A DNA stretch of 64,000 nt from Candidatus Omnitrophota bacterium (GTDB taxonomy: Bacteria > Omnitrophota > Gorgyraeia > JAFGHF01), in NCBI GenBank assembly GCA_020341815.1, contig CP070837.1, positions 1,236,575-1,300,574 on the forward strand. Reading direction: 5' to 3'. The position numbers and the translations under genes are program-made. Below are positions 1 through 56,437 of this stretch, in pieces; the stretch's first letter is position 1; each line of letters opens with the position of its first letter. The notes beneath the pieces are model-generated. The model did no database searches and was not told the origin of the DNA. It saw nothing but the letters and a program-made list of their open reading frames with translations.

Positions 1-3000
1 TTAATACGCCCCAGTACGGGCACATTGCTTGGCGGCACAGGGACAAGATGGCAGAATGATTTAAAATCAGATGAACCGGATAAAGTCAAATTCAAAGATA
101 AATTAATAAATAACCTCCGTCCAGAATTAAGGGAATACATACATTATTTTAAGGCTGCAGTGTCTGTTGGAAAAACAGGCAAGACTGTTTTAAGCGTAGC
201 TCATATAGATAAAGAAAGCTTAATGCAGTCAGGAATGTTTATAATGACTAATGAGACGAATCGAGAGGTGGCTGAGGAGTTTATAAAGGCAGTTATAGAA
301 GAAGAGCTTGGTGAGCGTGATGCTGAAACGGCAATAGCGAAAACTATGATGGTGGTGCAGCGGATAACGCCACGCCGCGTGCCAACCGAAGAAATGGCGA
401 GGAAATATTTTGAAAGAGAGCCCGATAAAATCCCCAGAAAAAAGAACGGAAAAATTATACATAGACAGGTTAAGAAAATCTATAAATATTGCAGAGAGCA
501 CGCGGGCGAGATAGCTATTGATATGAAGACATTGCTGCCAAAAAATAAATTTGGCAGTTTGTTAACGAAATTAGCCGTATTTTTTAAAGCTTTTTTACCT
601 GCTGGATTGCGAAGAAGACTATTTTGTAACAGCGTCGTATTTGGTCCTGAGAATCATTGGGATTTCATAAAGTATTTTGTGGCAAAAGCCTTCTTCCTTA
701 AGGTGTTAAAGAATGTAATGAGGGATGGCCAGATTCACGACCATTTCAAGCGCCTTGGAAACCAGGATGAGTTAGGCGGCGCCTTGGGAGAAGGAAGGCC
801 TGGGGAATTATCCTGGAAGTGGCTGTTGCATTCAGCCCAATCAAAAGGAGGATTATATGAGTTGATAGATGATACTGAGAAGATGCCTCTTGCAAAATGG
901 GAAGATTATTGGAAGAGCTCTGATTTTAGAAAGCGAATCTTGGGAATTGCCGGTGCAGTAATTGAAGGGGGAAGCACACCGGGTTATACCACTGGCGGTG
1001 GGATAGGTATCTTGGTAAGAAATATAGCTGGTGAAATAATCAGAACTATAGGTGTTTCAGAGCGAGGAAATTCAGCGTTGGGCGAGGATAAGATACAGAC
1101 CAGTATTACCAACTCTAATACAATTACTTACAGTGTGTTGGCAATAGCCTTATCCTGTGGTTTGAGGCCCAGTGATATACAGAAAATGATAAAAGAAATG
1201 GATGGCAATAATGGCCAGCTGCCTCTTGAACAAGAGAGCAGATTAAGCGAAAGGGTAAGATTTTTAGAGCAGCAATTTGTCCCTGTGCGTTATCAGGTGA
1301 AGTTAAGGCCGGGTAATCGTCCGGTAGTGGGCCAGGAGCGCGATATACATGGTTTATTAGGCAGAGGAATGGGCGACTTGCTTGTAATTGGCGAAACTAA
1401 AGATACTTATAAGCAGAAGATACAGCAATTAGATGAATTGTTATTAAAAGAAGAAATTACTTCTGGCGAACACCAGATTAAAGAAGAAAGGATAGCAAAA
1501 GATTTCACATTTTTACCCGGCAAACAATTTGACCATCTGAAGAATAGACAAAGGGCGGAAAAAGCGTTGATAAGGGTTTTGAAATTAGAAAATTCAAGCT
1601 CTCCTATTAATCCTGTAGCAGAAATAGACAGCAGAGATAAGACTGTTGATTCATTTAAGATCCCTGAAGAAATGAAGAAAGGCAAAGAAGGCCTGATTGT
1701 CTATGAAGTTGTTAATATTGGAAAGGTCCGAAAAAGAGGAGAGCCTTGTGTTTGGATTTGGTTTAGGGAAGAAGGTATTGCTGCTTGGGGCAGGGGAGTA
1801 GTTTGTACAAAAGAAATTATATATCCAACTTACACTATGTCCTGGGGCAAATATAGGTTAGAAATTTCCCATGACAGATTTAAGAAAAAAATAGTATTTA
1901 AGATTATTTGTCAGTCTTTTAAAGAAGAAGGGCAAGATAAGTCATTTGAGGCGGTAGTTGTGCCACGGAAATCTTTCTTAAACTCTCTTTGTCCTATTAT
2001 GACAAAGGAAACCTCCAGCCCGGCCATTTCAAAGACACAGACCTTCGGCGTGGTGAAGATTGGTTCTTTCTCCTCCCCAACAGAACAAAAGCCGACTAGG
2101 AAGCAGTTAGTGCTCAAGGCCTATAGCGGAGATAAAAGGCCTTCATTTAGTGAGTTATACGAGATTTTAATAACGGCTAACCCTGCCATAGCCTGTACAC
2201 TGTCCAAAGAAGATTTTCTGAAATGGCTAAAGGAAAGTGGATTGTGTAAAAAGATATGGTCTATGGTGATAAAGCAGATATATAGAGAAGTATTTTGCAC
2301 GGTCGATGTTATCTTGGCGTATCCGCCTAAGATTAAAACGGAAGAAGAATTATATAAAGAATTTAAGGAGAAATATGGCTTTGAAGGACTTAAAGAAGAC
2401 AGTTTTTATAATTTTTTGAACTTTGAATTGGCTTCCAAAAATACGACCTGGCAGAAAGAACGCTATAGAGAAACAAGAAGAAGAAAACGGCTAATATTAC
2501 AAGCTATGTTTCTGGAACGTGACATCAACTCAATAGGTGACTTGCGGGAAGTATTGGAAGAAAAAATAAAAGACTATACATTTACAACTTCTGTTGTTAA
2601 AAAGCTGATGCACTGCACGGGATATACTTTTAAAGCTCTGCGGGAGGAGTTTTCTCCTCTGAAGAAACAGTCACAAGAAAGAAACCGGCGCATATTAGAA
2701 GCTGTGTTTCAAGAACATAAAGTCAGTTCAATAGATGAGCTAAGGGAACTATTGGAAAAAAAGTTAAACTGCAGACTCACAGTTAAGACCGTTGAGGGCA
2801 TGCTAAACAGCGCGAGGTATACTTTGGAAGGCCTGCAGAAGAAGTTTTCTTCCGGGCAGGATAAAGCAGGCAGTCCCGTTAAGTCTATAGAAATATCTGA
2901 TATAGGAAGAACTACGGATACAGTGGACGTTTCCGATGCAATGATGGAAGGAAAAGAAGGCATAATTGTCTATAGACTATTTGATTGCGGTAGTATTAGG

Positions 3001-6000
3001 CAAGAGGCTCGCATTTGGATTTTCTTTAGAAAAGGCCACATTATTGTTTCTGCTACGGGAGACTTAAAGCCTATATCAGAAGGCTGTTGGCACTATTGTC
3101 CATGGTGGAATAGTTATGACTTGGAAATCAGATATCTTTCAGGAGATAAAAAAATACGCTTCCAGGTTCCCCGCGATGAGACTTCTTATAGATCTAAATC
3201 TACTGTACAGGAAAAAAAGTTAAGGTTTAAGATAGAAGTTGTATCTCGGGAAGATGGCGTAAACTCTCTTTGGCCTGTTAAGGGAAAAGAAACCTCCAGC
3301 CCGGCCAATTCAAAGACACAGACCTTCGGCGCAGTGGTGAAGGTCGATTCTTTCTCCTCTATTTCATCCCCTATTTCAATAGCTAAGTTGATAGAAAAAT
3401 GGTATATAAGGCAATTAAAGTCTCCATTTAGTATTTTTGGAGGAGGTTTGCATGCGGAAATTGAGATTAGTATGCGAGCTGTTGGTAAACTAGAAAATAT
3501 AGGTAGTGAGCAAGCTATAAAAGCATTGGCTGAAACATTACAGAATATGAATGCCGATAAGAGTGTTCTTAGTAAAGTGGCGGATGCCTTAGGCAACAAT
3601 ATCTCTTTAGTAAAAAATGACGCTGTTATTAAGGAAAAGATAATTCCTGCGCTAATCAAAGCTTTATTTGAAAAACGTGGTTTAGATAATAGAAGGGATA
3701 TTATTACAAAACATGCAGCTTTATCATTAAATAAAGCCATTGATTATATAGAAGATAATCCTATTATAGAAGAAATAGCAACTAATTTGATTAAGGCTTT
3801 TAGACTTAACCGGGAGGAGGAGATTATCAATGCTTTATTAAAAATCAGAAATTTTGCTATTCCTCTTCTAATTAAAGACTTAAAAAGCCCAGATGGCAAT
3901 GTCCGCCGCTCCGCCGCCAAGGCCTTAAGCTACTTTGGTCCTGAGCCCATTCCTCTTCTAATTAAAGACTTAAAAAGCCCAGATAATGATGTACGTCGGA
4001 AGGTCGTTGAAGCCTTAAGCTACTTTGGTCCTGAGGCCAAAGAAGCTGTTCCTGTATTAGTTAGAACTTTAGCTGATAAAGATAAATTTATTTTTGGCGC
4101 GGCAGTTTATGCCTTATATTGCATAACAGGAATTCCTTCAAACGAGATACTGCATAATTATTTGCAGAAAGGTGCTATTTCTAACGAAATTGCAGAACAA
4201 GCATCAATTAATATCGGTCCTGAAGCGGCAAAAACATTAATAGAGGTAGTTGGAATTAGTAAAAAATATGAACCAGAAGTAGTAAAAATATTGAAAGGTA
4301 ATGGACTAATAGCAAGATTTTTACTTATGGCAAGATTGAATGATAGATTATCTGGGATTGCCGATAATTTGTTGGCACGGCAAGGAGATTATTGTAAGCA
4401 AATATTGAATGACGACACAAGGCAATTATTTAATATCTTTTCTGAAGACATGTCTATAACTTCTCAAGAGGAATGGACAAAAAGATTTATGGATATTAAG
4501 GATGATAAACTATTTACTTATTGCATTATCCGCGCCAGGTATTTTATTAATAATTTTTCTGAGAAATCAAAATGGGATAATTTTATAAATTATTTGGATA
4601 GCAATAAAATCCATAATATCCAGGCGGTAAGCGATTTTCATTGTTATACAGGAGAATGTGTGAAATGTTGTGAAAAATGGCCCGTATCAATGACGATGCT
4701 CGATTTATACCGTATACGGTTTATTTTGCAGCAGCGAAAAGTTAGAAAGAGCCTAAAGGACTTATTTATAGAGAATGTTGATGCAACACATTTCTATATC
4801 TCTATTGTTGATAATGGATTTGTTGAAGTTATTCCTCGATTCAATCAACCATGCCCATTTATAGATTATGAGAATATGAATTGCAGTATCTATGATGTCA
4901 GGCCGTTAATATGCCGTATTTTCCCGGGATATACTATAAATAGTATAGCTAAAGAAAAGACACTGTCTTATAAAAAAGAAGGTCTTAAGTGCATTAAAGA
5001 AGGCATAAATATCTCTGAGGCAAGAAGCACATATCTTTATAAACTCCAAATAGCTAAATGGGAAGAAGAAATGTTTACAATTGACGAAATGGATTTGCAT
5101 ATAGAGGATGAAGGTATTATGAATGATACGCCAAGTTCTTATTGGGATATTGCAGTACAGAAAGATACATATAAAAAAATCATAACAAAGTTGATACAAC
5201 TTGATAATTCGGACAATTTAAATGAATTTCTTAAAAAAGCATTAATATATATTCAGCGGTTTAAGTTATTAGAGTATGGAGAGAATCTATTTGATGAGGA
5301 AATTCAATCCTCTCCTGTAGTCGGCGCAGTGGTGAGGATTGGGTATATAAATAATATAAATAGGGACAGCGACCATTTTAACGACTACCCAACGCAAGAA
5401 CCGAAGCAGGCAAGTACGCCGGATGAAAAGGTGGGCAGTTCGCCCGTGAAAAGTAATATAGTTTATCTGGAGACTTCCAATATCTTAGATGGAAATTGGA
5501 GAGAGAGATTAAACTCTTTGAGGATGTTAAGGCCTAAGAGACCACTAACATTGCTTTGTGGAGGCATATCAAGACAAATTACATCAACATTGTGCAATGT
5601 TACTTCCCATATTTGGACGACAGATACCTTGACTATGCTTACATACTCAGTTCCGCTGGCAGTAATTATCTCAATCTTTCTACGGGATTTGGTCGGATCG
5701 CAGCCTATGCTTAACGCTGCATCGCTGGGAATGCTGGTAATGCTAGCTCCTGTATCCAGAGCCATCGTTAGAAAGACAGGTTTACCTTTATTACCTTTTA
5801 AGGATATATTGATAGGTATTAGATGTAATTTTGGATTGAGGAAATATTTAGCCATAAATATTGAAGGCTGCAGCATATCCTTTAGGCAGGTCATCTTGAG
5901 AATAGGTAACAAAAATAGGATATTTAGAGTTATACTTGGCTATTTCTTTATATATAGTTGTTCTGTCAGGGCTGTGATCAAGAAGCTGTCCAGTGATGGG

Positions 6001-9000
6001 TTTAGCGTTTTTCACTTGCTTTACTTTTATCAAGAGCCATTCGTTTTTGAAAGCTTTTTTGATGTTGTCTATTTTCTGGATATTCTTCATCATTCTGCAC
6101 CTCCTGCCATTGGAGCGTTCCATAAGCGCCTTTATCTTTATAACATAGGCCATTTTGAAAGTCAAGGTAAAAAGGTAGGCCAGGAGTCGGGAATCCTGCT
6201 ATCCTCTTCGCCGGTTAAAGAAACCTCCAGCCCCGCCAATTCAAAGACACAGACCTTCGGCGCAGTGGTGAAGGTCGATTCTTTCTCCTCCCCAGCAGAA
6301 CAAAAGCCGATTGGACAGGGTAAGGGCAGCAGCCCCGTCAGGGCAAAGAAAAAGCCTGCTAAAACTGAATTTCAGAGATTGGAAAAAGAGGTCGGGAGAG
6401 TTTTGGAAATAGGCAGTGTGAGCGATTTAGATGAAATGTTCAATACATTAGAGAGCTTTATGGAGGGCAGTAGGAACGATAAAGAAATTGAAGAAGCTCG
6501 CAAGTTGCAGATAAAAGTTTTAAATAGAATTAACTATTTTGAAAATATGCAAAAACAGTGCATCTTTTTACAAAGGAAAGTTAATAGAGCCAAGGAATTA
6601 TATGATGCAGGAAATTTTACTGAGGCGCAAGATTGTCTTAATGAAATATCGCTGCCAGATATCCAAGATGGCTTTGAAACACAAATCGGCCATATCAATC
6701 GTCAGATAGAGGAATTAAGAGGCTTGTTGCAGCAGGAATTATCGGCATTAGATTTGTATAGAGAGGCCGAAAATGTATTGGAAGACAAAGATGCGCCTGT
6801 AGAAATACTGCAGGAAATACATGCGCGGATGTTAAATATAAATCCTGTAGAAGAGAATAAATCATTCCAGAAGTTGAAAAATATGCTAAACTCCCGCATT
6901 ATTTTAGAACGGAAGAGAATTGCAGAAAATAATCTAAAGAGACAGAAGGCGTTGGAAAAAACGTTGGAAGAGATGGACTCTATGCCGACTCATAAGATGG
7001 ATAATCTTATTCAATCCGGGAAGTTTAATCCGGAAGAAGTAAAGACTTTAGAGAGAAGACGCAATAAAATCGAGAGAAAAAGGGAGGAAGAGGAATTAAA
7101 CATAATATTTAATAAAGCTATAAAACTTGTGCAGTCTGGCAAAGCAAAGAAGGCTTTGCAAATGATTGATAGAGAAATTAAAATTTGTAATGCCACTTCT
7201 GAAAATACTTTAAGAGACCATAGAAGAAAAATAAGATTATTAATTCAGATATTAAAGGAAGAGCTTAAAAGGATATTTCTAAAATTTGGTTTTGTTGAAG
7301 AAGGGGATATAGCAGTGGCGAGAGATGTATTTAAGAATGTTGATATTCTATCGAATAGAGAAAGAATAAGAATGGGTATAAAAACATTGGAATTACTTGC
7401 ATTTGGTCCGGAACAGAGCTTATTAGAAATAGATCAGGGTTTATCTAGGGATTCTTTGTCTCTTGAATCTCTTTCTTTGTTTGCTATTGTTTGTGGAGCA
7501 AATGTTACATGTTGTGTTTCAAATGAATATAATAAAGAAGTCTTACAATTGAATATAAATAATCGTCTCAAGGAGATTGGTCATTTAATGATTAACGGGT
7601 TAAAATTAGGCAGAGTTTCTTGGGTAATAGGGTCTATTCATCGGGAAGATATAGTCAGACAATTGCAGAAAAGAGGCCCATTTACCCGTATTATTCATTC
7701 GCAAGCTATAAACCCATCTAAAAATAATGCGGAATATATTAAAAAAACTTACAATTCATTAGTCGGCCTATTAGAACCAAAATCAAAATCAGTCCTTTGT
7801 GTAAGCTGGAAAGAAAGAGATGGCTGTGGCATGTGTAGGTTAATAACTGAGTTGGTAACAGGCTCTTGCAATGCATGTGATTGCGATAGAGGGATGCTTG
7901 AAGAAGAGCTGAAAAATGTATTTGAAACAAATGGTTTATCAGTTAAGAAAAAGGCTATTGTAAAGGAGCCTTTAATTCCCGCAGAAGGAACTAATAGATA
8001 TATCTATATATTAGAAGGCAACCAGTCCTCTCCTGTAGTCGGCGCAGTGGTGCAAATTAATTCTTTCTCCTCAAATGCCCACTCCAGCCCTGCTGAGGCA
8101 AGGGAATTGGAGCGGGGAATGAAGGATGCTTTTGCTGCAAATCCAGATGAATGGCTTGAAGATTGTAGCGCGGAAACCAAATTATTCAGGCCGGGTGATG
8201 GCGTAAGGCCCCTGCAAAGGTATGCTCCGTATTTTATAGAAATCGTGGCCAGGGCTATTGTTTATGGGCTTGGCTGGCTGCCGAAGGAAAATATCCAAAG
8301 CGGCCTTCCCGCTGCGGAGTTAAATAAGGCTATCACCTGGCATCTGGTGCAGGGGTTAGAGAATTTAGGATTACAGAAAGGGGTTTCTTTTGAGGTATGG
8401 ATTAGGGAGACTCAAAGGAAGATGATTTCCGGCACTAATAAGGTAGGAGACATAATCGGCGATGAATCTGCAAAGAGATTTTTAATTTATTATGACCCTG
8501 TGGAGAACTCCGCTGGTGTCTCAGGCAAGAATGCGCAGGAGGTAATGACGGTTCTGGTATGCATTGATGGAGACAAAGAGCGCTTGTCTGCTATTCCTGA
8601 TGGCCTCTATATAGACCAGTTCATTTTGGGGGATGGGTTTAGAAAGGTGGACTTGGATTTTGGCAATATCGTGGGCACTTTAGAAAGCGCAGCCGGCGCA
8701 AGGCTAGGACAGATGAAAATAGTTATGTTAGGCCGAGAGGCAAACAGAGATATTATAGAGGAGTTGGTAAAATCAAAGAGAATACCTGTAAGAACTAAGA
8801 ATTTAGACCAAATGCAGGAGGCTTGGGAGAAAAGCGAAAGCGGAATCTGGCACAACGGGAATCTGATATTCTTCAAACAGGGCATTGCCGCAGCCGGCCC
8901 TTGGCTTGCTTCGGGGAAGGCCGATGTTGTATTGGGCCGCGCTCAACAAGAAGCCTTAATAGTGGCCCTGATGGCGCTATGCGCAGGCAAGGGGTGTCAG

Positions 9001-12000: not shown

Positions 12001-15000
12001 GGTGAAGGGGAAGAAACCTTCGCCGAACTTGTTAGGCACATATCGTTAGGCCTAATGGATTTATCACTCATAAAGGGAATCATTTATAAGACAAAAGAGG
12101 GAAAAATTAAAAAGACTGCACCGCGGGAGCTTATGAAAATTGAAAAATATCCTATGGCTTCTGAAAGTATAGATTTATTGGAAGTTAAAAAATATCCATT
12201 ACATAGAGGAGCAATTTTTACATCAAGAAAATGTCCGGGAAGATGTATTTTTTGTGCCTCACAGAAAATATTTGGAGACAGGAAATTAAATGATATCAAA
12301 AGTGCAGAAAGCATCTTTGGGGAGATTATGTATCTATACAATCGCAATATAAGAACAATAGATATATTAGACGATACTTTTACAATAAATAAGCAAAGAG
12401 TATTGAAATTAGCCGATTTAATAGAACAATCAAGAATAAAAATAAAATTCTTTATTTCAACACGGGCGGATTTTATAGATAAGAAGATAGCAGATGCCTT
12501 GAAGCGAATGGGTTGCGTAACTGTCAGGATAGGGGTGGAATCCGGCGACCAAGAATTGTTGGATAAGGTGATTGATAAAGGCATAAAATTACAACAGGTT
12601 ATTGATGCTACAAGGCTGTTACAGGAAATTAAAATATATATGGTGCACTATTTTATATTTGGTCTGCCGGACCAGAATTGGGATAGCGTTAGAAAATCGG
12701 CTCGATTTATGTTAAAAAATCCTCCAAATAGAGTAAATGTTTTTATGGCAGTGCCTATTCCCGGTTCCAGTTTGTATAGCGACCCAAGAATATCTGTAGT
12801 TGACCGAGAGAATTATTCTCTATATTACTCTATGCCATTAAGCACAGAAGCATTTTCTCGCCTTCCTTGCTTTACAAAAACCAATGTGATGAATAGCGGA
12901 AATATAAGTTTGGCCCGTTGGGCATCAATGGAAATCTTTAGAAATAGAAAAAATCCGAGAATTGTTAAGAAATGGATGAAAAAAATAGGGGTTTCCTCCC
13001 CGGTTTCATTTCTGGACAGGGCAGAAAATAAACTCAAGAGTATGGGGTATTTGGTGGAAAATAATCTTTTTTATTTTATATATGAACAAATCCTGCGCCA
13101 TATAAATTTGGACATGAAAAAGGCAGACTTTATGGATACGCGGGATGTTAGGTTAAAGGCAAGAAGGATAATAAATTTAATTTCTGCTATGAAAAATTTG
13201 GGCTATTTAGATAAAAAAGCCGATATAGTGAAATTTCTTGCTTACGGGTTAAAGCCAGAATTTTCTGATGACCTTGAGAATATGAATTACCGAGATCTTA
13301 CCGATGCGGCAATTTGCCAGTTAATTTATATTATATTAGATGGCTTATTGTGTGAAACCGGAGGGGAAATAGCAGTCTTTAACAGCGCTTCCAAACCCGT
13401 GATACTAGTTTTCCCTGATGGAAATATAGATATGCCTGATAGGCTGTGCTTGCTTATAGATATCGATTTTGATAGAGCAGGGCAGGAAATCCTGTATAAA
13501 CAATTTAGGGTGGGCTCCTTCTATCAGCCCCATTTTTATAGCAATAAATATGTAATATTCTTTTTGAAAAAAGGCATAGATATTACAGATTCTACCGGAA
13601 AATATTTGACAGAAAATTGCCCTTACCTTTATTCTGCGCTTCCTTTACGTAAAAATATGGGATTTTTGAATATGATTTGCACAAAACGCGCACAGGCTTA
13701 TGAAGATTTATTGAAAGATGTCCCCGCCGCTATTGCAGAATGTGAGAGGATGATTACAATTAGAGATAAAAAAGATGATAGCGATAGAAGATTTGATAAT
13801 TTGATTTATGGTAAATTCTTTAATCTTTGTAGCCAAAACGGCTGTTATGAGAAAATTAATCCCGAATTGCTTAGAGTTATCCGTGTTTATGCCGGAATTC
13901 TTAGTGAGATTTTTGACGATAATCCCGGCAATATAGATGAAATCGATTTAGTTGTTTTAAAAAAGACATTCAGAAAAAGCGAGGAATTTAAGTTATATGA
14001 GAATTGCGCAAAGCTGGACTGGAATACATTTTGCCGTGGATTAGAAAAAAGTTCTTTAAAGACATATTTCGAAAGGCTTATTAACAAAAAAACTGTATTT
14101 CTTGAAAGAGGAGACAGCTTTGATCCTGAAGTTGAGCGCCAGGTAAATGAATTAACTCGGCTCTTGGGCAATGCAATTATGTGGGTTAGATTAATGGCGT
14201 TCTTTGAGGATGATATTTCTGCAGAGACATTAGGGGTGTCTATAATGCCGAATATGTTTGACACAGTAATTACAAGCTATGCCGGCAGGCGCTCATCCAG
14301 GTCTTCGCCTATAAGGCCTACGGAAGAGCCGCTTTCTCCGATAGCCGCTTGCGCCTTGAAGAATCTTAGACAGACAATTTTACTTATCGATGTATTAGTA
14401 AGAGATAATTATGATAAAAAGGATATGGATATCCCCGATCTAATTTTTAGTAACCTGCAAGCTTTAGAAAAAGATTGTCAAGTAATTGAGAGCGAAGTAA
14501 TTAAAATATTCAAGGCATTATGCATAAAAGATAATTATGATAACATTCTGACATATATGAAAAATTTTCATTCAGAGATTGGGGTAATTTTGTATAGATT
14601 ATTTTTGGTGACTGCAAGAATTGATATCGCTAAAAATATTTACAAAAAACTGGGTGAAGCGATAAGCACCTTATATCTTGTTATTGAAATGACAATTAAT
14701 TTCATTCAATTCCAGACCATAGGCTTTCTGAATTTAACAGAATATTATGAAGTCACAGAGAATCGCAATGAGGAGACGAAGGAAAGTTCATATATTCTTT
14801 ACATTGGAAAAATGCTGCTGGGTATGTTCTGCCACTGGAAAAGACGCTTACGTAAATTAGAGGAAAGAGGCGGGATGAATTTGGCGTTAAGCGACCTAAA
14901 TGTCTTTGGTGAAGCCGGTTCCGGATTATGGGAATTGATAAAGATTTCTTATAATTTGAAAAAGGTGTTTGCAATAGCAGATCATTATTTTCCTCTGCTT

Positions 15001-18000
15001 CTGGATCCGGAAGATAAGAAAACGCCTTCCGATACGGAGGAAGAGAACGATACGGAAGTTGCTCATGTAGCGAAAGGGTTAATCGAAGTACTTCTGCTTG
15101 CTCAGGTAACCGGAGGTATATTCCCTTGGGGTATCAGAGGCCCAGGAGCGCATTCTTCTCCGGTGATCCAGATTGAACAGATACAAAACTGGCTTAAAGA
15201 GCGCATTAACAGCCCGCCTGACGAAGCCTTTGTGAATTTCTCCCCATCAGCCCAATCCAGCCCAATCCGCAATGAAAAATACCCCCAGACCCCCTCCCAA
15301 AAAATCAAACCCCTTAGCAGCCCAGCAATAAGTAAGAGCAGAGAAAAGATAGCGCAATTAAAGGAATTGCTTGAAGAGCCAAAAAATGCGGCCTGGCTGG
15401 CCTATCTTCCGATTAAGGGGCAGATGAAAGGCAGTAATAAAGATGAATTAATAAAGTCAGTTATGGCCTGGATTAGGAAAATAAAATCCTTTAAAGATAC
15501 TTACATGCAAGAATTGAAAGATATAGAAGATGAGATAAGCAATGTTTTTAAGCCGATTCTTATTGAGTTTAGCGATATTCTGGGCCAGGCTGCAGATATT
15601 GGGGAATATTTCGTGAAAAAATTAGAGAAGACTACTTCGAGAGACTTAAATATCTTTCTGCAACAAGGACAAGAGGTGCTTAGAGTCAGAAATTACATTG
15701 AAAAACTACTTAAAAATTTAGAAGAGGCAAGTAAAACGCGCAAGGGCACTTCCGGAGCCGAAGAATTTATGTTACTTTTCGGGTGTGAAAACTGCCTGGA
15801 AACCCTCAATAATGTTAAACAGATGAAAGGGCCGAGCCTGTTACAAGTCTTTACCGTATTGCACTTTAGCATTCAATGTTTATTGGCGGCATTAAGCTTT
15901 CTTGGCCAGGATGAGTGGTTCCTCCTTAAAGAAAGAAAACAGATATATGAGGAATCGCTAGGACGTATAAAAAAATTATTGAAGAAACTATATCAACTGC
16001 AAAATGAAGCTAAAGCTAAAGGTGTTAATAATAAGATAGTAGAAAGGCCAAAGACAGGAAAAAGGGCCCTGTATAGGTATTTTAAAACGGATATACAATA
16101 TTTGGTTGTTAAAATTGATTATTTAGATGCAAGATGGACTACATATGGGGAAGAAACAATGACAACCATAAGAGAGGAATTAGAAACGAACTGGGAAGAG
16201 AGGATTTCATGGTATGAGAAAGTATTGAAAGAATTAACATCGTCTTCGCCCCTGGAGAGCCCAATCATCCTATCTTTATCCCCGCCATCCAGTTCACCTG
16301 CCATTAAACAGACAGAAGATTCAAACGGAAAAATAAAAAATCAGTCGGCGTCTATACATATTGATTTTGACAAACTAGAAAGAGCAAAGCTGCTTTCCTG
16401 TTTAATCGAATTATCTTGCCTTGAAGGAAATAGAACCAAAGAGGAAGTCCTGAATATTATTATTTTATCTGAACAGGGATATACAGAAAAAGAAATCGCT
16501 AAAAAAATAGGAGGGTCTCAACAAAATATAAGCCAATTTTTTCAGTTTTTACGCAGGCGCCTGGAATTGCTTATAATGAATAGTCATATAATAAGATTAG
16601 GCATAGAAAAATTGCCGGAAGAAGCAGAAAATTATTCTTATCCTGTGAAAACATTAATGGTGCGGCTGTTTCTATTAAGAGAAGCAATGTTGAAACTCGC
16701 ATTGCAGGAGTGTAAAGAAGGAACAGAAGAATGCAAGAAAATAATAAAAAAATTAAAAACCCTAGACACAAAAAGTAAAAATTTAAATAGAGATATATCA
16801 ATCTTTATAGAATTCCTTATAACATTAAAAAAATCAATGCTTATTAAAAAATTTAGTATTTCTGAAGATGTAATATGGCGTGTTTTAAATAAATATGCAC
16901 CATTGCTTGAGGATATTCTTAAAAAAGATTACAAAATAAAAATAAATATAGGCAAAGACCCATCCTCAAGCTTCAGTTCACCCGCGTTTAATCGTGAGGA
17001 TAGGATGATTGAGGAGGCTTTACGGAGGACAGAAGTTATGCTGTATGGTATAGGTTATTCTCTGAGAGGTGACTTTGCTGAGATGTATAAAGATATCCTT
17101 GATAATATAGAATTTGGCGGCAGAAAGATAGATTTTATAGAAAAAACGCCGGAATGGCAAAAGGCGCATAAGATAATAGATTTTATTTCTGCTGTAAAAA
17201 GATATGGCTATTTGGATAAGAATAGCCCTATAGTGCGGTTTCTTGCTTATGACTTGTCCTGGAATCAGGAATTTCGCACTTCCTTTGAGAATTATGCAGA
17301 TCTTTTATATGCGGCGGCTTGTCAATTGATTTATATTTTATTAGATGCATTTTTATATAATAGTAATGAGAAAGATGATAAAGTTTCAGTCTTCAACAGC
17401 GCTTCAAAGCCCGTAATTGTAGTTTTTCTTGATAACAATAGAGATATGTCCGATAGACAATGTATGCTTATAGATATGGATTTTGGCATAAAAAAGGATA
17501 AAGAAAAAGACGAATTTTCATTTACATATACAAAGTTTAGGTTAGGGGACTTTTATTATCATCATTTTTTTGGTAGAAAATATCTGGTATGTCTTTTAAG
17601 GGAAATAGAAGATAATAGACAAAATAGGCCCATTAAAGATTACTTAAGCAAAGAATATGCTTATATTTATTCTGCATTACCTTTAGAGAGAAATACCGGA
17701 TTTCTAAGCCTGGTTTGCGGAAAGCGTGCACGAGCTTTGCATGATTTCCACAGTAAAACCGAAGCCGCCGTTCGAGAATGCCAAAACGTGCTTAAAATTA
17801 GACAGGGGGCTTTCGGTAATTTGATTTACGGAGAGCTATTTCATATCTGTATGCAAAATGAAGAGAATAGATATACGGCCTATAATTTGGTGGGGAATGT
17901 TTTTACTTACGCCCGTATTTTTTACGATATTTTTAAGAATAATATAGAAAAGGTTGATTTATCTATTTTGAAAGGTGCCATCAAAAACAGCGATGAGTTT

Positions 18001-36000: not shown

Positions 36001-39000
36001 GGAGATAGGACTCTTTCAATAAATTATCTTGGTTTGCGCGTCAAACCCACAAGAGAAAAAGTTTATGGCCCTAATATAAGAAAAACCAGGACACTTTCCT
36101 CTCCCGCAAAAGATGGTTCTAAGGATAAAAAAGTAAAATTTCTAAACTGTCCCGATACAATAAAACCGATTTCCGGTATTTTCTTAAGTGGGATAGAGCC
36201 GTCTGAGCAGAAAATGCAACAGCTTCTCCCTGCATCCGGCAATAGGGCAGAAAAAAGAATAAGGGGCGTGGCGGAAGTTGTTGGGGTGTTCTTAAGCAAG
36301 AATGAGGATACTTCTGATTCCGCCGCCTCGCCAATAGACTCAAGTAAAGAAAATAAATTAGATCTCGGAAAAATAGAGCCCTATATTGATTGTTTGGAAA
36401 ATATCATAAGATTAGCAGCAATGCTCCCTGATAGTAGAGAAGAAGGCTTTTATTCAATTATATTTTCTCTGAATTGCAATCTCAAAACATTAAAAGATAA
36501 TTTTGATGAAAATAGTATTCAAGATATAGAAAATTTATTTAAAAAATTATGGCAAAGTACAGTGCAGATATTGAAGGATAGAGCAAGAGAAGTTCACAAA
36601 AATTTAAATCCTAAAGAAATATATAAATTTGGCTGTATGATTAAAGAATTTGGGGTGCTTAAAGAAAGTTTATTTTTGGGCCAAGAGCCTATAAAATCGG
36701 TTTTAGAAATAGAACAAGAAATAGTAGAAAATATTTTAAAAAGATTGAAATACTATCTGAAGACAAAATTGATAGACTTAGATTTTAGAGATTCCAATCT
36801 TGATGAATGGAATAAATTTATAATGCAAAGAGCAACTTCTATAGAACTTCTGCAGGAAGATAAATGGAGAAAAGCATGGTCATCCGTTGATGGAAATAGG
36901 AACCGAGATTCCATCTCCTCGCCGATAAATCCGGGTTTGCCGCAGAGCGAGAAAGACATTCTTGAAATCATTTCCCACTTTATAATTACTGATAAAGAAA
37001 GCTTATCTGAATTGACAAAGGGTGTTAGCCAATTAATTTCTTCAAGACAAAAAGATTTTCTTGCTATTGAAAATAAGTTAAATATGGATAGCTCGGAAGA
37101 AATGATATCGGGCCTGCAAGATTTGCGTCTATTAATATTAGGAGATGTAATAAATACCAATAATATCAATTTTCTTGTTGAGTATGACAGAATAGATAAA
37201 AATCTTATAGGATATGTTGCGTTACCTGTATTTACATATATCTTTTTGCGTCTTTTATTAAAGCAAAAAAATGTATGGTGCTTTTGTGCACCGGAACATA
37301 TAGTTAATTTGATTTCTATTAATGAGTCAGAAGGCTTATTTGTAGATAGCTTTTTAGCAGAGTTTTTTGAGATAGACTTGCGTGAATATTATAGATGTCA
37401 GAATAAGCAGTTATCTTTAAAAATTGAATATATGCCTGAGAGCCAAAGGGCCTTAGGATTGCAAGATAAACTTAATCTGTTTTACAATCCTTTGAGATGG
37501 CAGATAGATATTCCCGCTTTAGTAGAAAAAATAAAGCATAATACCTTACGTATTAAGAGAGATAGCTTTTCTGTTTTCTATGTTCCTATTTTGGGAAAAA
37601 ATGGAAGAAAGGAAAAAATATTCGAAATATATCAGATAAGGTCCTCTGATGGGTTAGGAATAAAGTTGACAGAAAAGAAGATGGTAACAGAACTGTTATT
37701 GAAAGAGAAATTTTGCAAAGATGCAAAGTTGATTACTTTTCCCGTGGGGAGGGATGAGCAACTGCTTAATCGCAGAGAAGAGCTTTTTGAAGAGTCATGG
37801 GACAAACTGATGCACAGGTTTCCGATAAAAAGAGATAAGCCATTGCTTCCATGGGGCTTTTTAAGCAATATAAGAGGCATAAAAGAAGATGCTTCTAATT
37901 TTTATCTCAGTTCTCCGGCTACGGATGCCGTATTTAAAGCATTAATCAAAAATCCTTTTATTTCCAAAACAAAATTTAATTTTGCGGTCAGCTTGTCTGT
38001 TTTTAATCAGATGTGTGCGAAGGCTTTAGTAGAAAGAATAAAAATAATTTTAAGGGATGAACTGTTAGAAAATTTGCCTAATTTTACTCTGGATAATTTA
38101 TATGAGAAATTGCAAGAAATATACAGCTTAATCACAGATAAAAACTGTTTAGAAAATAATAAAAAGAAAAATAAATCTTTTATTGCACATATAGAGAAGA
38201 TGCTGAAATTAGCTAATACTTCCTGGATAAAAATAAAAAAAGAAATTATGCTAGAAAAAGCAAGACAATTATATCCTTTTGTTCAGCAAAAAGAGGAAAT
38301 CGCCAAAGAATTAAAGGACTTATATATAAAAGATAAAAATAAAGGGGTAGATTTTAGGAAAGCACTAAAAAGAAGGGTGAAGGGATTATTAAAAAATAAT
38401 CTCTGTATGCCCGAAAATAAAATAAGAGCTCAAATAGTGAAAGATTTAGGTGTGAGAAGAATTTATCGGCAGAGACTTTATGAATGGCTAGAGCCGTTGG
38501 GAGGTCTTAAGCATTTACGTGCTGAGGCGCTATATGAAATATTGGAAGAAATAACTGCAAAAAGACAACAAGAGCAAAAAGTCTTTACCCTGGATACATT
38601 TTTTTATATGTTTATTGTATTAGGATGGCTTGGCTTAGGTTCCGGCATAAGTAAAAACTTTTTCCGCAGAGAGATAAATGAGTTATTAGCCAGATTGGAT
38701 ACGTCTTTTGAAGAAACAGAGGCTGTTGCCTTTCTGAAGACGAAAGGAGTAGATTTAGAAAGTAGTATATTTAGGAGGCGGTCTAATGATGATCCCAGGC
38801 CAAGATGCACTTATCAAAGAGCATATAGAAGGTTGAAGCTGATTGAGAAAACATGGAATGAAGCGGATTGGCAGGGAGTAGAGCATGAGCCTTTTTCTGT
38901 AAAGGAGATAAACTTAAAATGGCTGGCACAATGTTCTCCCGAAAGACTTAAGCAGAAAGTATTAGAACGAATTCAGCAAAGAATAGAAGAAGCAAAGGCA

Positions 39001-42000
39001 GATGAGTATATTTTAGAGACTTTAATCAGCCACGGCGGCCATCAAGGGCAGGCAGCGTATGCATTGGGCCTGACCAGGTACCAGCTAAGCTGGCGATTAA
39101 AGCAAAACCCGTTTTTAAGAGGACTGATCGACCCCAAGAAAGTTATTGCAGAGAGCAATAGGCGGAAATGGAAAGAAAAGAAAATACACAAGGCATTAAC
39201 AGAGCTTATCTTAGGTATTGCCGCAGAGACAGAAGAAACATTTAAGGGTCAAAGCCCGGATGTGCTTATTTTGAAAGCAACAGATTTGGTATTGGATAGA
39301 TATAATAATATAAGAAAAGACAATCTTCAGTTTGCCTTAATGAAGACAAAAATAATTCTGGGCACGCTTAAATATGAAAAAGATCCTATTTTAAGAAAAA
39401 TAGTCCTTTTATTGGAAGACTTTATATGGCTTTGCCATCAGATTATAGCATTAAAAACTTTTACAAAAGCAGAAAACTCATTATTGCTGAAGAATTATAA
39501 GAAAGCAAAAGAATTATTTTCTGAAATTAGCGCGATTGCGCCTGAAGGAAGCGACTTTGCCGCGCGGGCGGTTGTGTCTATAAAACGATGTGATGACCTG
39601 ATATTGGCAGTATCGGAATTTACTGCGGCAAAAAGAATGATGAGGTGGCAACGATTGGAAGATTATCAATGTGCACTGGGAAACTTTATAAGAGGTATAA
39701 ACAGGATTGAGAGATATAAGGATGAGCCTTTGGAAGGGAGTATTATTTCCGAGGTATGGCAATATATAGATGAAATTATAGATGAGTCATCATCAATATA
39801 CTATAGGCTGGGTAAAAAGCTGATTTTAAATGAAGAGTTTGAAAGAGCAGAAGAAGTTTTCGAAGAAGCAATACTTCTATTTGCGCCGATTGTCAATATG
39901 CCGCAGGATACGACAATCATTGATAAAACAGAAGGACATAAAGATGCTTTTGCTGATTTGAAGAAAATAGCATCTATGCTTGCAGTCTCTAAGCAATTAA
40001 GGATAAATGGATGTTATGAAAGGGAAAGACTTTTATTGCAAAAAATTATTGATTATATAAGGAATGTAAGCGGAATGATTCTTACGGGTTTTTGTGCGGA
40101 TGTTGCCCAGCACCATATGAAAAAATGCGCAAAATCCATTTGGGCTAATTCCAATTGCAATAAAATAGATAGTAATAATTTTATTTCCAAAGAATCCTTT
40201 AAAGAAGAATTTTCTTTAGAAAAACTTAGAATTTATCGTATATTGCAGAAATTTTCTATAGAGAATAAAGTTATTTTAGAAAAGCTAAAAATAGATATCC
40301 TTGCTTTAATAAATATTATAATAAATCTTGAGCCGAAAATTAATGCGTGTCTGGAAGGTTTAGAGGACAGGAAAGACCTATATGCTTATATCAGAAAGGA
40401 ATTGAATTGGGCAAGGGAACGCGGATACCCTTTAGGGGCAATTATTGCTATTATTGATAACATTTTATTGGAGAGAAAAAAATGCTTTTTAGAAAAATTC
40501 GGGGGTGTCTCTGTTATCTCTTCTTTCGAAGGACGGCATATTTATGGCAGGGGAGGGTATCTTCATAAAATAGAGGCAGAAGAGGGAGGAGCAGTAATAT
40601 TTGACGAAAGAGGTTTTTTAACAGAGATTATTTTGACAGACGATAGATATAGGCCGATAGGGGTTATAAGAATTAAACGTCTGAATAATAATAATAACAC
40701 TAAAATTACTGCTGATTTTAGTGAATATGGGGATATGACTAAGACTAAGACTAAGGATAAGGTGTCGAGATATAAACTAAATTACTTAGTAGCCGCCTCG
40801 CCGGCTCACCGGCAGGAGGAAAATAGTGACACAGACCGCATATTTATAGGAAAAGCATTCTTGCGATGTTTTGATATTGGACTTGCGGGCCTTGTGAGTC
40901 TTATTTCTATCATTGGTTATACATATTTTTATACTAAATTTTATGCTCCCCAGGTAGATTTTTATAGCCATCTGAATGAAAATATATTCGGTTGGTTTCT
41001 TGTTATATTTATTTGTGTAGGATTGCATGAATTGGTGCATCGTTCAGCGATTAGATATTATAAATATAAGAAGAAACATCAGTTGGAATATAAATTTAAC
41101 TGGTTTAGTTTTAAAAAGGGCACATACTTTACTATAACTACTAAAAATAGAAAAATTATTAAAAAAATAGAAAAAAGAGGCAAGTATACTAGCCGGATAT
41201 TATTTGCATTTTTTGTTATTTCAGGAATTATATTACCGGGTTTCAATTTTGAGATAAAAATAACGGGTTTTATAATAACAATATTTAGAAAAATTCATTT
41301 ATCTTTGATGGGGTTAATAAAGTTGTTTTTTAGTTTTTCTTCAAAAGATATAGAAGAAATAAAAGAAGTAACTTATGAAGAATCACAGCAGATTATTATG
41401 CGAATGATTAGGCAATGTCAAGCGGCTTTAGAGAGGCTCATCGTAAAAAAACCTACAATGATTATGTGGGGCGGGAAAGGGCCTTGTGTAGGTAAAGGAT
41501 GGACAGCTCGTAATTTTAGTAATTATTACAATAAGCATAAAAAAGGTAAGAAAGGTCAATCTTATGTTATCAGAGGAGATAATAGTATATATCATTATAA
41601 AGACCGGCCACCCCCATCTAAGGTAGGTTATCCTGAGAATACCTTTGATATTGAAAGATTAGAAATAGTAGTAAAAAGCGCTGCTTCTTTAAAAGAAGTG
41701 CTTATGACTATTTATGACGATACATTTAGGATGCCTTTAGGGGTTTCGGAAGAAATGCTTGCAGAAGCTTTGAAGAATTGCCCTGTTATGCAAAAAGGAG
41801 GTTATGAATTATTGCTTCTGCCGGATGCTGTAAAAGATGTAGAATTGAAATATTTTTTACCCGAAGATTTCATTGATGAAATGATTGAAAAAGTTAAAAA
41901 TAATGGCGATGATGAGAAAATAATCGAGAAACAGATTAAAACTATAATTAATAGAAGCAATCAGCCTTTAAATAGTAGAAAATATTTAATTAGTCCGGCA

Positions 42001-45000
42001 GTTAAAATATATATTGATACGAGAACGGGATATTTAATACAAGGATTTAATTTTGCCAAGGAAGATACCGTAATAATTGAATTTGAACAAGCTTTGACTT
42101 TTGAGGATATAAGAAAATATGCGGATATTTGTGTGTTTGTATATGCAGAGCAACAAATTCAAAAAGATTTATTTATGGGAAGAAGAGAAAACGGGGAAAG
42201 ATACCCAGACCTTACTGAGGAACAAGCAAGAGAAAAATTTAAAGAATTATGTGCAAGGGTAAATGCCAATCCTCTATGTAGAGAAGGGGAACAACACGCA
42301 AATATTATTATTGTTAATACAGCTTATCTTGCCCGTAGTTTGCAGCATGAATTTGGTATCATGAATCCACATACATCTTCCCCGATAGTGAAAAAAGGGA
42401 ACGGTTCTAATTCTTTATCCGCCTCGCCGGTGGAAGGGGAAACATCCCATTCTCAAGATATTAAATTGAGCCAAAGAGAAATCGATTCTTTGATTCAAAA
42501 TTTAAGAACAGATAGTTATTATGAAGTATTTAAATATTATTGGAATAAATTTGCTATATACGGAGAAAAATGCCCTAAAGAACTTATCATAGTGAATAAG
42601 TTGAAGTATAGAATTTTATTGATATCTAATACCGTAGGTCTTCCGGAGTCACCGGAGGATACCTATGGGCGAATTTTAAAGTTTATTGAGTGTAAGATTA
42701 AAAAAGACCTTAATTCTTTAAAAGAAATTAGAGAAACATCGTTATCTTATGATGAATGGCCTCTCGAGCTTAAAAAAATAGTAAAACAAGTACAAAATTT
42801 TTTGTGCAAAATTTTTTGGGAAAGATACAAATTAAACGTTACAATAGATTTAGCACAAAAAATGCTGATAGATAATCAGTTTGGATCATATAATTACGAC
42901 ACTTCCCGTTTAATTGACAAATTTTTTGTGAGTTATGAAAAAGATATCGGCAATTTCATTGTTAAGATTATCCATGAGGCTTTACATGTTTATTTACCCT
43001 TTGGTTTTTTCGATATTTTTGATTTATTATTTTTAGAAGAAGGTTTTGTTTCTGAGGAGACAATTGCATTAGGTCAATTTTTTCAGCAACAAACCGATAT
43101 TCAAATAAAAGAGGATTCTCATCTTTTGAATAGAGAGGTTTATAATAAGATTGAGCGAAAGGTTGGACGAGATGCGGTTATGGAATTTATCCTTAGAGGG
43201 TCAAGAGATTTATTTCTTGATAGATTTGGAGAAAACAGCCATATTGTATTCGCTATCTTAAATTATCTACAGCATTTAGATAACATAAAATGGCCTGAAC
43301 GTATGGAGATAGCAAAGAATATTATAGACAATAGTTGTAATTTGCATGTGTTGAAGAATTTTATTATAAAGGAGAAGGAACAATATCTGTTAGATAAGAG
43401 ATTTGTTTGTAATGTCTGGAATGTCGTTAATAAAAGAGGGACTATTTTCAATCCAAATTTATTGTTATCCAATCCCATAAACGCCGCCGCTTCGCCGGTG
43501 GAAAAAAAAGTAACGGAGACAATCGCAGACTGTCTACAGAAAGGACATTTTGTAAGATTTGATACCATTGCAAAAATGACAGATGTCAAAGTCAATGAGG
43601 TTATGATTATTGCGTCAAAGAGATATCCCAGGCAAAATATAAAGGAAGATGGGATTTGCAGTAAGTCCTATCCGGGCGATAGAAGGGTATCTTCATATGA
43701 AAAATGGTATATAAATTATATTATAAAAAAAGAAGGAGGATGTCCACTAGAGATAGATAAATTTGTGAATCTGACAGAGGAAGGCTTTTATTTCGGGTTA
43801 AAAGAAAAAAATAAGGAACCTCATCAGGGCATCGAAGGTTTTTATGTAGATGGCAAATATCTAAAAGCCAAGAAGGTTTATTATATATCTTCCCCAGTGA
43901 ATAACGCTTTTGTGAAAAAAGGAAATGGTTCTACTTATTTATCCGCCTCGCCGGTGGATAAGTTGAGACCCCGCGCGTCAATCTCCCGATATATTTTAGA
44001 AGGAGAGGTAAACATAAGCCTTTTAAATTATAACTTTCTTATAACTCTTGCACCAGTCCTACCATTGCCATGTTTTGAACTTTACACATTACGCTTTGTG
44101 GATAGAGATGACAAATTCCAAAAGACAGCAGCCGAGATTGAAATATATATTCCTTTTGAAAGACAAGAAGAAATAGGACAAAAGAAAGAAATAGAGATTA
44201 GAGGGTTTGAGATAATGGCCCCTTATTTGCGGAAATCATTAGCTAAATATTTTCTCGTTGTATTTTTAGAAATTTTAGATAAGTATTCTCTTTTTAATAA
44301 TTGTAATTTTAAGAGAGTTAATATAGTGGGCCATCCTTTATTGGCCAAGGAATTACTGGAATTCGGCTTTGAACCTATTGATAAAGAAACACCAATATAT
44401 CTTGATATGGGAAAAACAGGAGAGCATATTTTCGTTTATATACCCAATGATAGTATAAAGGAGAGGCTTGTTTTACCTCCAAATAGTTGTATTAAGTTCC
44501 TTGAAGAAGAGCCCGGCGATAATTATATAAAATTATTTGTCGATACGCCTTATTATTTATCTAACAGCACCAAGATGGACGAGAGATATGAAACGCTTAT
44601 TAAAGAAATTAAGCTTTCTTCTATAGAAGAAGGTAAGGAATGCTTATCTTTTAAACTAAACTCTAAAAGGGAGCCTTATTTTGCAATACTTACTGTTTTA
44701 AGATGTTGGTTAGAAGAAATGGATATTTGTAACAGAAAACATTCTGAGGGGCTGCAACGTTATGCAGCACTAATTGCACAAGAGATGAGATTGAAACCTG
44801 AGGAATGTAAAGCAATGGTGATAGGGGCATTATTGCACGATATAGGTAAAAGAAATATCCCAGAAGAAATCCTTTTAAAGCCCGGAGAGCTCAATAAAGA
44901 AGAAGAAACTATAGTGCATGAGCATTGCGTGGAAGGCTTGGCAATGATTTTGGGAGAAAAAAACTTTGAGTGTATAATTCCCTTTATGACTACAAAATAT

Positions 45001-56190: not shown

Positions 56191-56278
56191 GCATCAAAAC
56201 GTCCTTTACGACTTCCGGGTAGACTTCCGGGGACAGGTCACTTAATTCTGAATCGCAAGGACGGTTCTAATTCTTCCC

Positions 56279-56292
56279 CCGCCTCGCCGGTT
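56279..56292 (+). repeat. Linker-repeat copy located 3' of the giant-gene stop (non-coding context)
   Basis: cgcaaggacggttctaattcttcccccgcctcgccggtt compares with the in-frame copy at 42395-42432 (aaaaaagggaacggttctaattctttatccgcctcgccggtg) and with 43921-43956. Confidence 0.75.
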
Positions 56293-56408
56293 ACAGGAGA
56301 TACAGAAAAACGGTCGCTGTCCCTATTTTCTATAAAGGTATTCTTATTTCAGAAAGTCCCTATAAATAGGGATTAAGTGAAATGAGGTCTTTGGCTTCTT
56401 GCTACCTG

Positions 56409-56437
56409 CTTGACAAATAAAAGGTATTATGATAATC
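56409..56437 (+). promoter_or_regulatory. Sigma-70-like promoter for the downstream ABC transporter operon
   Basis: TTGACA (56409-56414), a 17-nt spacer, then TAATCT (-10-like). It sits ~50 nt upstream of the RBS AAAGGAGAAA and the GTG start at 56485. Confidence 0.45.

Follow-up and report, generated by a model that had tools for sequence, protein, structure and literature searches.

Antisense nested genes, toxin-antitoxin cassettes, and the giant genes of Omnitrophota are each known already, and their combination appears to be undescribed. Here we report such a combination in a 64,000-nucleotide stretch of the genome of a Candidatus Omnitrophota bacterium (GenBank assembly GCA_020341815.1, contig CP070837.1, forward-strand positions 1,236,575 to 1,300,574), referred to below as the window. 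Two small cassettes, each made up of a gene for a retropepsin-like aspartic protease and a gene for a small partner protein, lie antisense inside one giant open reading frame (ORF), about 46 kb apart and only distantly related to each other, and the giant frame crosses both without a stop codon. We consider this arrangement best explained by a toxin-antitoxin or defense-type cassette that became trapped antisense in a fused giant operon and was then paved over for the passage of ribosomes, a reading to which we assign a probability of roughly 0.62.

As in the antisense nested genes described from bacteria, frames on opposite strands coincide here over hundreds of bases and use registers in which stops can be avoided. 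To our knowledge, the described cases consist of a short, young ORF inside an older gene. The embedded unit here is instead an old and widespread two-gene operon with its own predicted promoter; the enclosing frame is the unconstrained one, kept stop-free only, and the arrangement recurs over many genomes and cassette families.

The giant ORF, with more than 18,000 codons and unrelated enzyme domains, resembles the "multi-enzyme metabolic cluster" giant genes of Omnitrophota as presented in a June 2026 preprint (bioRxiv 10.64898/2026.06.07.730766), and the scanned part of the ORF places it among them (more than 10,000 codons, with many unrelated enzyme domains). Omnitrophota proteins of at least 10 kAA number 5,761 when in-house and NCBI sets are taken together. 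Whether giant proteins are cleaved or remain single chains is stated as an open question in that preprint and in West-Roberts et al. 2023 (bioRxiv 10.1101/2023.11.21.568195). At the level of terms, neither source mentions antisense, nested, or opposite-strand genes or linkers, and section 8 of the former mentions neither embedded genes nor linkers; a broader literature search found nothing comparable to embedded antisense operons. To judge from the terms in these two sources, neither embedded antisense operons nor linker-delimited modules seem to have been described.

Type II toxin-antitoxin systems share with the cassettes two small, adjacent, overlapping genes, an own promoter, patchy spread, and tandem copies; unlike in those systems, an aspartic protease takes the place of a nuclease as the predicted effector. 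Among the PADLOC candidates, PDC-M08 and PDC-M52 have B components that the proteases match (PDC-M08B at 6.6e-12 for cassette 1 and PDC-M52B at 1.1e-7 for cassette 2), whereas the small proteins lack a match to the A components. The bacterial retropepsins Rickettsia APRc (5c9f), Pseudomonas RimB, and Rlo are similar in their fold, which is predicted here, and in the D-T-G-A signature. Compared with APRc, the cassette 1 protease is about 23% identical, has 130 amino acids, and is nearly always paired with an upstream partner gene.

Polyproteins processed by viral retropepsins offer a further likeness, in a very long multidomain ORF, a proline-containing linker, and retropepsin-type genes at the locus. 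Here, however, the protease is on the other strand, has its own predicted promoter, stands outside the polyprotein frame, and occurs elsewhere with unrelated linkers. Integron arrays hold heterogeneous modules, repeated separators, and interspersed addiction cassettes with their own promoters, whereas the array in the window is one ORF, translated as a whole by our reading, in which the repeats are kept as peptide and the host frame crosses the cassettes. No integrase or attC-like site was seen in the window, though no search was aimed at them.

Two antisense cassettes in one giant reading frame

The features of the two cassettes and of the giant ORF around them, with positions counted in the window, are the following.

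1 to 56190, forward strand: giant ORF of at least 18,729 codons; stop at 56188-56190; continues past the left edge of the window
5437 to 5448, forward strand: left host linker G-SSPV-K, border of the cassette 1 module
5449 to 6204, forward strand: giant-frame filler segment, 252 codons free of stops, antisense through cassette 1, between SSPV linkers
5463 to 5855, reverse strand: clan AA retropepsin-like aspartic protease gene of cassette 1, 130 amino acids; ATG at 5855, stop at 5465-5463; DTGA at residues 34-37
5848 to 6093, reverse strand: small partner gene of cassette 1, 81 amino acids, divergent and DUF5678-like; ATG at 6093, TAA at 5850-5848
6100 to 6105, reverse strand: Shine-Dalgarno sequence AGGAGG, 6 nucleotides upstream of the ATG at 6093
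6137 to 6165, reverse strand: sigma-70-type promoter-like site TTGACT-N17-TATAAA, found by direct pattern search
6205 to 6290, forward strand: right host linker SSSPV (6205-6216), then one 74-nucleotide linker repeat (KETSSPANSKTQTFGAVVKVDSFSSP) of repeat family D3
51547 to 52431, forward strand: second filler module, 295 codons, from ASPA (51547) to ASPV (52420), antisense through cassette 2
51631 to 52035, reverse strand: cassette 2 protease gene, 134 amino acids, DSGA-type; its ATG at 52035 overlaps the stop of the small gene (ATGA)
52032 to 52238, reverse strand: cassette 2 small gene, 68 amino acids, bona fide DUF5678 (Pfam PF18929, 8.2e-12, 45.2 bits, cut-off 23.2)
52259 to 52287, reverse strand: cassette 2 promoter-like site TTGACT-N17-TATATT with a TG upstream, found by pattern search

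A sequence-only reading of the window had proposed a minus-strand retropepsin-like protease ORF at 5463-5912, preceded by a small ORF at 5848-6165 and bracketed like an inserted module by copies of an SSPV repeat. Both ORFs are present, the SSPV copies stand at 5437-5448 and 6205-6216 (with an SSPA at 6226 after the right one), and the unit does behave as an inserted module. The protease ORF exceeds the Pfam gathering cut-offs of gag-asp_proteas (PF13975; 5.8e-15, 56.1 bits, cut-off 28.2) and of Asp_protease_2 (PF13650; 4.9e-14, 53.2 bits, cut-off 24.3). The latter was one of three families named for checking; membership in the other two, TIGR02281 (clan_AA_DTGA; 45.3 against a cut-off of 57.95) and TIGR03698 (clan_AA_DTGF; 21.4 against 57.35), was rejected, although the protease is related to both. 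The Pfam match spans residues 48-132, the protease domain nearly fills the protein, and no further domain was detected by Pfam. The length of 149 amino acids first given for the protease is that of an existing ORF and is probably too long: since the 43 relatives are mostly of 128-130 amino acids, the real start is most likely the ATG at 5855 and not the TTG at 5912. The small gene likely starts at the ATG at 6093. Across the protease relatives (19 for the D-T-G-A signature), D34, T35, G36, and A37 as well as LLGLN are invariant.

An AlphaFold2 (AF2) model of the cassette 1 protease reached a predicted local distance difference test (pLDDT) score of 92.9, and a Foldseek search with this model returned Rickettsia APRc (5c9f_A, template modeling [TM] score 0.72) as the best match, followed by human immunodeficiency virus type 1 (HIV-1) protease and DDI1 RVP. 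The modeled protein has the retropepsin fold, a half-barrel that would be expected to dimerize. The fold search succeeded where a Protein Data Bank (PDB) sequence search with the window protein gave no match. The small protein of cassette 1 has no Pfam match. With the bona fide DUF5678 protein of cassette 2 it has 24% identity and shares position, length, and coupling to a protease; a home-made profile joins the two, but it was built from both, and the AF2 model of the cassette 1 small protein (pLDDT 58, alignment too shallow) is not usable for comparison. The cassette 2 protease exceeds the Asp_protease_2 cut-off as well (PF13650; 3.1e-6, 28.2 bits, cut-off 24.3) and belongs to a family of more than 400 relatives. 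Ten of the 12 further minus-strand ORFs of at least 100 amino acids in the window were scanned (all except 43263-43595 and 48633-49082), and only cassette 2 gave a family match.

In cassette 1 the protease start overlaps the TAA stop of the small gene over 8 nucleotides (5855-5848, ATGGCTAA). By these motifs, the two genes of the cassette are predicted to be translationally coupled and to have their own promoter and ribosome binding site (RBS). A general promoter scan upstream of the cassette 1 small gene found no minus-strand site; that scan demands a T at the end of the second hexamer. A weak, terminator-like minus-strand hairpin lies at 5445-5433 in the GC-rich left linker, 18 nucleotides past the protease stop. 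It was rejected as a terminator, being too weak, and such sites are not enriched over shuffles.

The giant frame was said to stay open for about 250 codons across cassette 1, and it does so: it contains 0 stops over the two genes, against 17 and 16 in the other two antisense frames. Its translation over 5443-6204 has no Pfam or NCBIfam match, and the filler (5449-6204) resembles antisense translation in its amino acid composition. A composition scan of the whole giant protein flagged four antisense-like segments, the strongest two being the cassette 1 filler and a segment at about 51.6-52.5 kb; the other two (41041-41340 and 50611-51030) are, by eye, one hydrophobic and one linker-rich stretch. 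A six-frame sliding codon-usage score did not separate the strands, and the composition scan and the substitution analysis were used instead.

Two null models gave the number of stops to be expected in the giant frame. The first resamples synonymous codons with the protein sequences fixed and local codon usage; the second is built from related cassettes that carry antisense stops, matched for GC content at third codon positions. Under the first, the probability of no stop in cassette 1 is 0.19-0.33 for the protease and 0.03-0.20 for the small gene; under the second, 3.7 stops are expected jointly, with a probability of none (P0) of 0.005. The depletion in cassette 2 is far stronger, with first-model probabilities of 5e-5 to 0.012 for the protease and 0.007-0.017 for the small gene, and with 8.0 stops expected under the second model (7-8 overall), 0 observed, and a joint P0 of <1/1500. 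The second model was calibrated on control cassettes, in which 5.4 stops were observed against 6.1 expected. Among the relatives introduced below, 30 open cassettes passed the resampling filters; about 5.2 stops are expected in each, and every one has 0. At the level of sequence, this comparative evidence for openness beyond chance is decisive.

Selection on the two strands and recurrence among relatives

Substitutions were compared by Nei-Gojobori counts among five embedded orthologues (the window and loci L084, L085, L086, and L087). In the minus-strand genes they concentrate at third codon positions, with counts of 17, 13, and 46 over the codon positions of the small gene in one pair. Identity among the orthologues is 0.57-0.78 for the antisense genes versus 0.29-0.65 for the giant frame. 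The proportions of nonsynonymous (pN) and synonymous (pS) differences are 0.13-0.22 and 0.75-0.90 in the antisense genes (0.17-0.22 and 0.85-0.90 in the small gene), and 0.32-0.37 and 0.29-0.32 in the giant frame over the small ORF, where its nonsynonymous-to-synonymous ratio (dN/dS) is about 1.1-1.25. The test is informative over the small ORF because both frames there share the codon register. Synonymous sites are saturated between lineages, yet the host frame has no stops.

These counts show antisense genes that are intact, conserved, and under purifying selection. The host frame, by the same counts, is selected to lack stops only: because giant-frame pN is close to pS and the lineages use two different relative frames, it is constrained for openness alone, and its predicted peptide is filler and not a second functional protein. 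The sequence-only reading had inferred two overlapping coding constraints maintained by selection and had proposed dN/dS analysis on both strands. Selection for openness holds, and the giant-frame peptide itself is unconstrained; put in terms of dual coding, both frames are stop-free beyond chance, and purifying selection does not extend to both.

Scans of genome collections with the protease alignment returned 124 loci, of which 110 are complete cassettes; with few exceptions, the gene directly upstream of the protease is the partner gene. An antisense frame is stop-free over about 205 codons in 31 of the 110 cassettes; the best frame of each of the others, those from other phyla included, contains 1-10 stops. 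About 15 open cassettes lie inside very long open frames of up to 6,794 codons, which often run beyond both contig ends (loci with such frames are L084-L088, L090-L093, L098, L026, L018, L014, and L025). A decaying relic had been named as the alternative, in which the antisense ORF would be disrupted in orthologues that conserve the giant frame; at least 12 distinct embedded relatives keep both antisense genes at full length together with an open host frame.

Genome bins labelled Omnitrophota, and one labelled Planctomycetales, hold the nearest relatives of the cassette (64-78% identical), and the overall spread over Omnitrophota, Elusimicrobiota, and several archaeal phyla is patchy. In the protease tree the open trait clusters in the Omnitrophota-like part, with closed relatives interspersed and with two relative frames. 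Host frame and embedded gene stand in two registers only, with the codons in register or with the third positions coinciding; these are the registers in which codon choice can avoid antisense stops. The third register is never used, and open cassettes have 8-26 stops there. Across all loci, the genes next to closed cassettes lie about equally on either strand, whereas those next to open cassettes lie on the opposite strand only. In four free-standing relatives of cassette 2 (L128-L131), the best antisense frame contains 5-9 stops. Their surroundings are ordinary genes, almost all in the opposite direction, and they adjoin HicB, AbiEii, and PIN_3 genes.

A BLAST comparison of the giant frames of L085, L084, L092, L086, and L091 with the giant protein of the window found the cassette alone in common. 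Because otherwise unrelated giant frames share the cassette only, its placement is independent and not inherited with the host gene. Each embedded cassette is flanked by the linker of its own host, with one copy per side in L086, L091, and L098:

Window, L084, L085, and L092: SSP[VAI]
L086 (giant-frame residues about 1000-1050 and 1290-1340): SARTSP tandem repeats
L091 (residues about 1350-1400 and 1690-1720): SGERAFSGKDVFENEPGD
L098 (residues about 3277-3310 and 3920-3960): QPSAE[DE]TSSLLIVP, then a hydrophobic stretch

No copy of the protease or of DUF5678 in the sense direction was found in any giant frame examined. Genomes scanned with the module that precedes cassette 1 in the giant gene yielded no relatives, and no orthologous giant gene without the cassette was obtained.

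Other genes are crossed in the same manner. Classic toxin-antitoxin genes lie antisense in the giant frames of four related Omnitrophota contigs:

L098, 592-1083, 6331-6657, 7508-7951, and 10972-11412, antisense to the giant frame: three PIN/PIN_3 genes and a CopG antitoxin gene
L092, 4532-5065, antisense to the giant frame: one PIN/PIN_3 gene
L091, 10801-11455, antisense to the giant frame: a DUF433 and DUF5615 pair
L090, 4159-4512, antisense to the giant frame: a DUF5615 gene

The eight embedded toxin-antitoxin genes contain 0 host-frame stops, against 1.3-7.1 expected, and at least 5 antisense genes lie within 20 kb of L098. Stop-free crossing thus recurs, depends on context, and extends to other toxin-antitoxin genes.

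At about 15 loci the antisense ORFs are of just 220-334 codons and barely cover the cassette. Twelve of these were viewed closely and consist of tight, co-directional arrays of opposite-strand ORFs with single stops or 4-nucleotide overlaps between them. In L003/L089 (ORFs at 299-1033 and 1030-6285), for example, the antisense ATG overlaps (ATGA) the stop of an upstream gene for a 1,751-amino-acid repeat protein, and similar cassette-sized antisense ORFs are present in L015, L023, L048, L052, L097, and L104. Such arrays are possibly unfused operonic intermediates, or else giant genes that were split recently.

Of 28 open cassettes, 23 have the pattern TTGAC-N17-20-TAnnnT ahead of the small gene, where shuffles predict 0.39; it stands 35-80 nucleotides upstream and often with a TG before the -10 element; it was found in only 8 of 48 closed cassettes, which are mostly from other phyla. 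Among nine other embedded relatives, GGAGG or AGGAG stands at -10 to -15 in five and a 4-nucleotide GAGG only in three; L087 and L098 have no RBS match. The motifs show that the cassettes keep their own putative expression signals within the host ORF. Tandem DUF5678/protease cassettes occur on single contigs (three in L074, two in L006/L007, two in L057, and three in L120), as would be expected of mobile addiction or defense modules.

One further contig, that of L001/L002, is a single 15.9-kb open frame for which the public gene calls give many short ORFs on the other strand. For annotation, the warning is that gene calling can overlook giant ORFs or fragment them around embedded genes, or else lose the embedded genes.

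Proposed origin of the enclosed cassettes

The trapped-cassette reading would proceed as follows. The cassette normally sits between co-directional host genes on the opposite strand. These neighbors would first become tightly coupled and then fuse, enclosing the cassette, and substitutions within its two genes, synonymous and conservative ones, would remove the antisense stops. A ribosome on the host message could then cross the approximately 750 bases without termination, and the product over the cassette would be an unconstrained filler peptide. Because linkers flank it, the filler may be tolerable as a spacer, or removable if the linkers are processing sites. The openness would presumably arise because the host message must be translated without a break, for a full-length polyprotein, for the avoidance of polarity, or for both. 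Removal of stops only, where the amino acid constraint is on the other strand, is hard to explain unless ribosomes must pass.

With regard to the cassette itself, we infer an addiction or defense module in which the protease would be the effector and the DUF5678 protein its partner. It has the two small, adjacent, co-oriented genes, the predicted promoter, and the coupling of a type II toxin-antitoxin system, as well as a patchy, mobile spread and toxin-antitoxin or defense genes as neighbors. Searches for mobility vectors found no match in phage records or IMG/VR, and three plasmids gave distant matches only (35% identity).

Several points weigh against the trapped-cassette reading. Taken alone, cassette 1 shows a modest stop depletion (P about 0.005-0.05), and translation of its giant-frame segment is read solely from that depletion. 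The 30 resampled open cassettes are not independent, because open cassettes cluster phylogenetically; this is offset because synonymous sites are saturated, two frames are in use, and the hosts are unrelated. Neither small protein matches any PADLOC model (E <= 0.01), the A components of PDC-M08 and PDC-M52 included, and a literature search found no paper on the function of the DUF5678/retropepsin pair or of the PDC candidates. No recombinase or terminal repeats belonging to the cassette were found. The initial tolerance of a cassette that carried about 5 antisense stops is explained only through the proposed operonic intermediates.

Chance, or an old insertion that is eroding while the giant frame is stop-free by luck, would suffice for the cassette 1 protease taken by itself (P of no stop, 0.19-0.33). 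It is refuted by the intact genes and purifying selection in every embedded relative, by the conserved promoter, by zero stops in all 30 resampled cassettes (5.2 expected) and the P of <1/1500 for cassette 2, and by the saturation of synonymous sites between relatives that still have no stop. True dual coding, in which the giant-frame peptide would be a functional domain such as a hydrophobic membrane segment, would account for a frame that is open in many relatives, for the hydrophobic stretches of the filler, and for the fairly high giant-frame identity over the protease part (0.51-0.65). That identity, however, comes about because third codon positions are shared; over the small ORF, giant-frame identity is 0.29-0.46 and dN/dS about 1.1-1.25, the different relative frames of the lineages yield unrelated peptides, and the filler has no family match and an antisense-like composition. 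We regard dual coding as very improbable.

A domesticated maturation protease is the alternative that takes the resemblance to viral polyproteins literally: the antisense retropepsins would cut the giant polyprotein at [SA]SP[VAI], before the proline, and their antisense position would couple or time expression. Retropepsins can cleave before proline, as at some retroviral sites. One giant gene with two protease cassettes, about 59 linker motifs kept as peptide as their codons vary, a modeled fold near that of HIV protease, and linker-flanked fillers that could be excised all speak for this proposal. It is nevertheless disfavored, and we hold it to be quite unlikely, since the same cassette (proteases 48-78% identical) occurs in giant genes with unrelated linkers, free-standing pairs of the family are common where giant genes are lacking, in genomes and phyla that include archaea, the further genes embedded in antisense encode ordinary toxin-antitoxin components and not proteases, and no giant gene examined has a protease copy in the sense frame. 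Toxin-antitoxin cassettes are thought to stabilize chromosomal integron arrays, and an addiction cassette could in the same way anchor a repeat-rich giant gene against deletion. Several toxin-antitoxin-type cassettes are placed along giant frames (L098 and the window), and the repeated linkers between modules could recombine; the cassettes occur in ordinary gene neighborhoods too. Such a benefit, which we consider rather doubtful, would add to the trapped-cassette reading and not replace it. A combined view, in which stop clearing is a general rule of Omnitrophota giant genes and cassettes were recruited as linker-cutting maturation proteases, which would free the enzymes and discard the filler, or as anti-deletion anchors, is unlikely in our judgment. 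If true, bacteria would have a parallel to the polyprotein expression of retroviruses, in which the protease is encoded opposite to its own substrate gene.

If stop clearing is general, it would provide evolutionary evidence that ribosomes must run the full length of fused-operon ORFs. According to the giant-gene papers, it is an open question if single-unit translation really takes place in bacterial genes of 10,000-150,000 codons, and this question now has exact test sites in the junction and filler peptides. Giant genes may also be a previously undescribed habitat for toxin-antitoxin or defense cassettes, including the uncharacterized DUF5678/retropepsin pair with its hundreds of relatives.

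Modules and linkers of the giant gene

The in-frame Pfam domains found in the scanned part of the giant ORF are CxxCxxCC, just upstream of cassette 1, B12-binding with Radical_SAM, SecA_DEAD, SecA_PP_bind, and P-loop_SecA; because of these in-frame domains the giant frame can be taken as genuinely coding. Bases 1-24 of the window were checked, and the frame is stop-free there as well. Its modules are separated by 59 [SA]-S-P-[VAI] motifs (in 25-56190; for example at 1597, 5437, 6205, 12994, and 52420), spaced 7 to 1,308 residues apart and without conservation in the flanking residues. The motif is conserved as peptide and not as DNA, because all synonymous codon families occur; it may serve as a cleavage site, a modification site, or a spacer. 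In at least one case, a linker-delimited module corresponds, by alignment, to a whole stand-alone gene: residues 3884-4259 of the giant protein align, from the first residues on, with the stand-alone B12/radical-SAM gene of L131. Whole enzymes connected through short [SA]SP[VAI] linkers give the giant gene the look of a fused operon, and giant genes of this kind appear to form by linker fusion of co-directional operon genes, swallowing what lay between them.

The 74-nucleotide linker repeat that follows the right SSPV of cassette 1 (KETSSPANSKTQTFGAVVKVDSFSSP) has copies at 2005-2078, 3286-3359, and 6217-6290 and a partial copy at 8039-8072, which are 78-99% identical. An inverted repeat, GACCTTC-N11-GAAGGTC, lies inside it and could give an RNA or DNA hairpin. 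Paralogous modules are also present in the giant ORF (37926-38720 and 48702-49500; 13155-13485 and 17160-17485); their DNA is 74-89% identical, and internal module duplication is therefore indicated. Past the giant-ORF stop (56191-56480), the same frame holds a linker-like GSNSSPASPV at 56265-56291 (repeat families D2 and D12), and the next gene (56485-57780), which has an N-terminal hydrophobic stretch ending in SLAGCG, shares the frame of the giant ORF. The present stop of the giant ORF may be recent.

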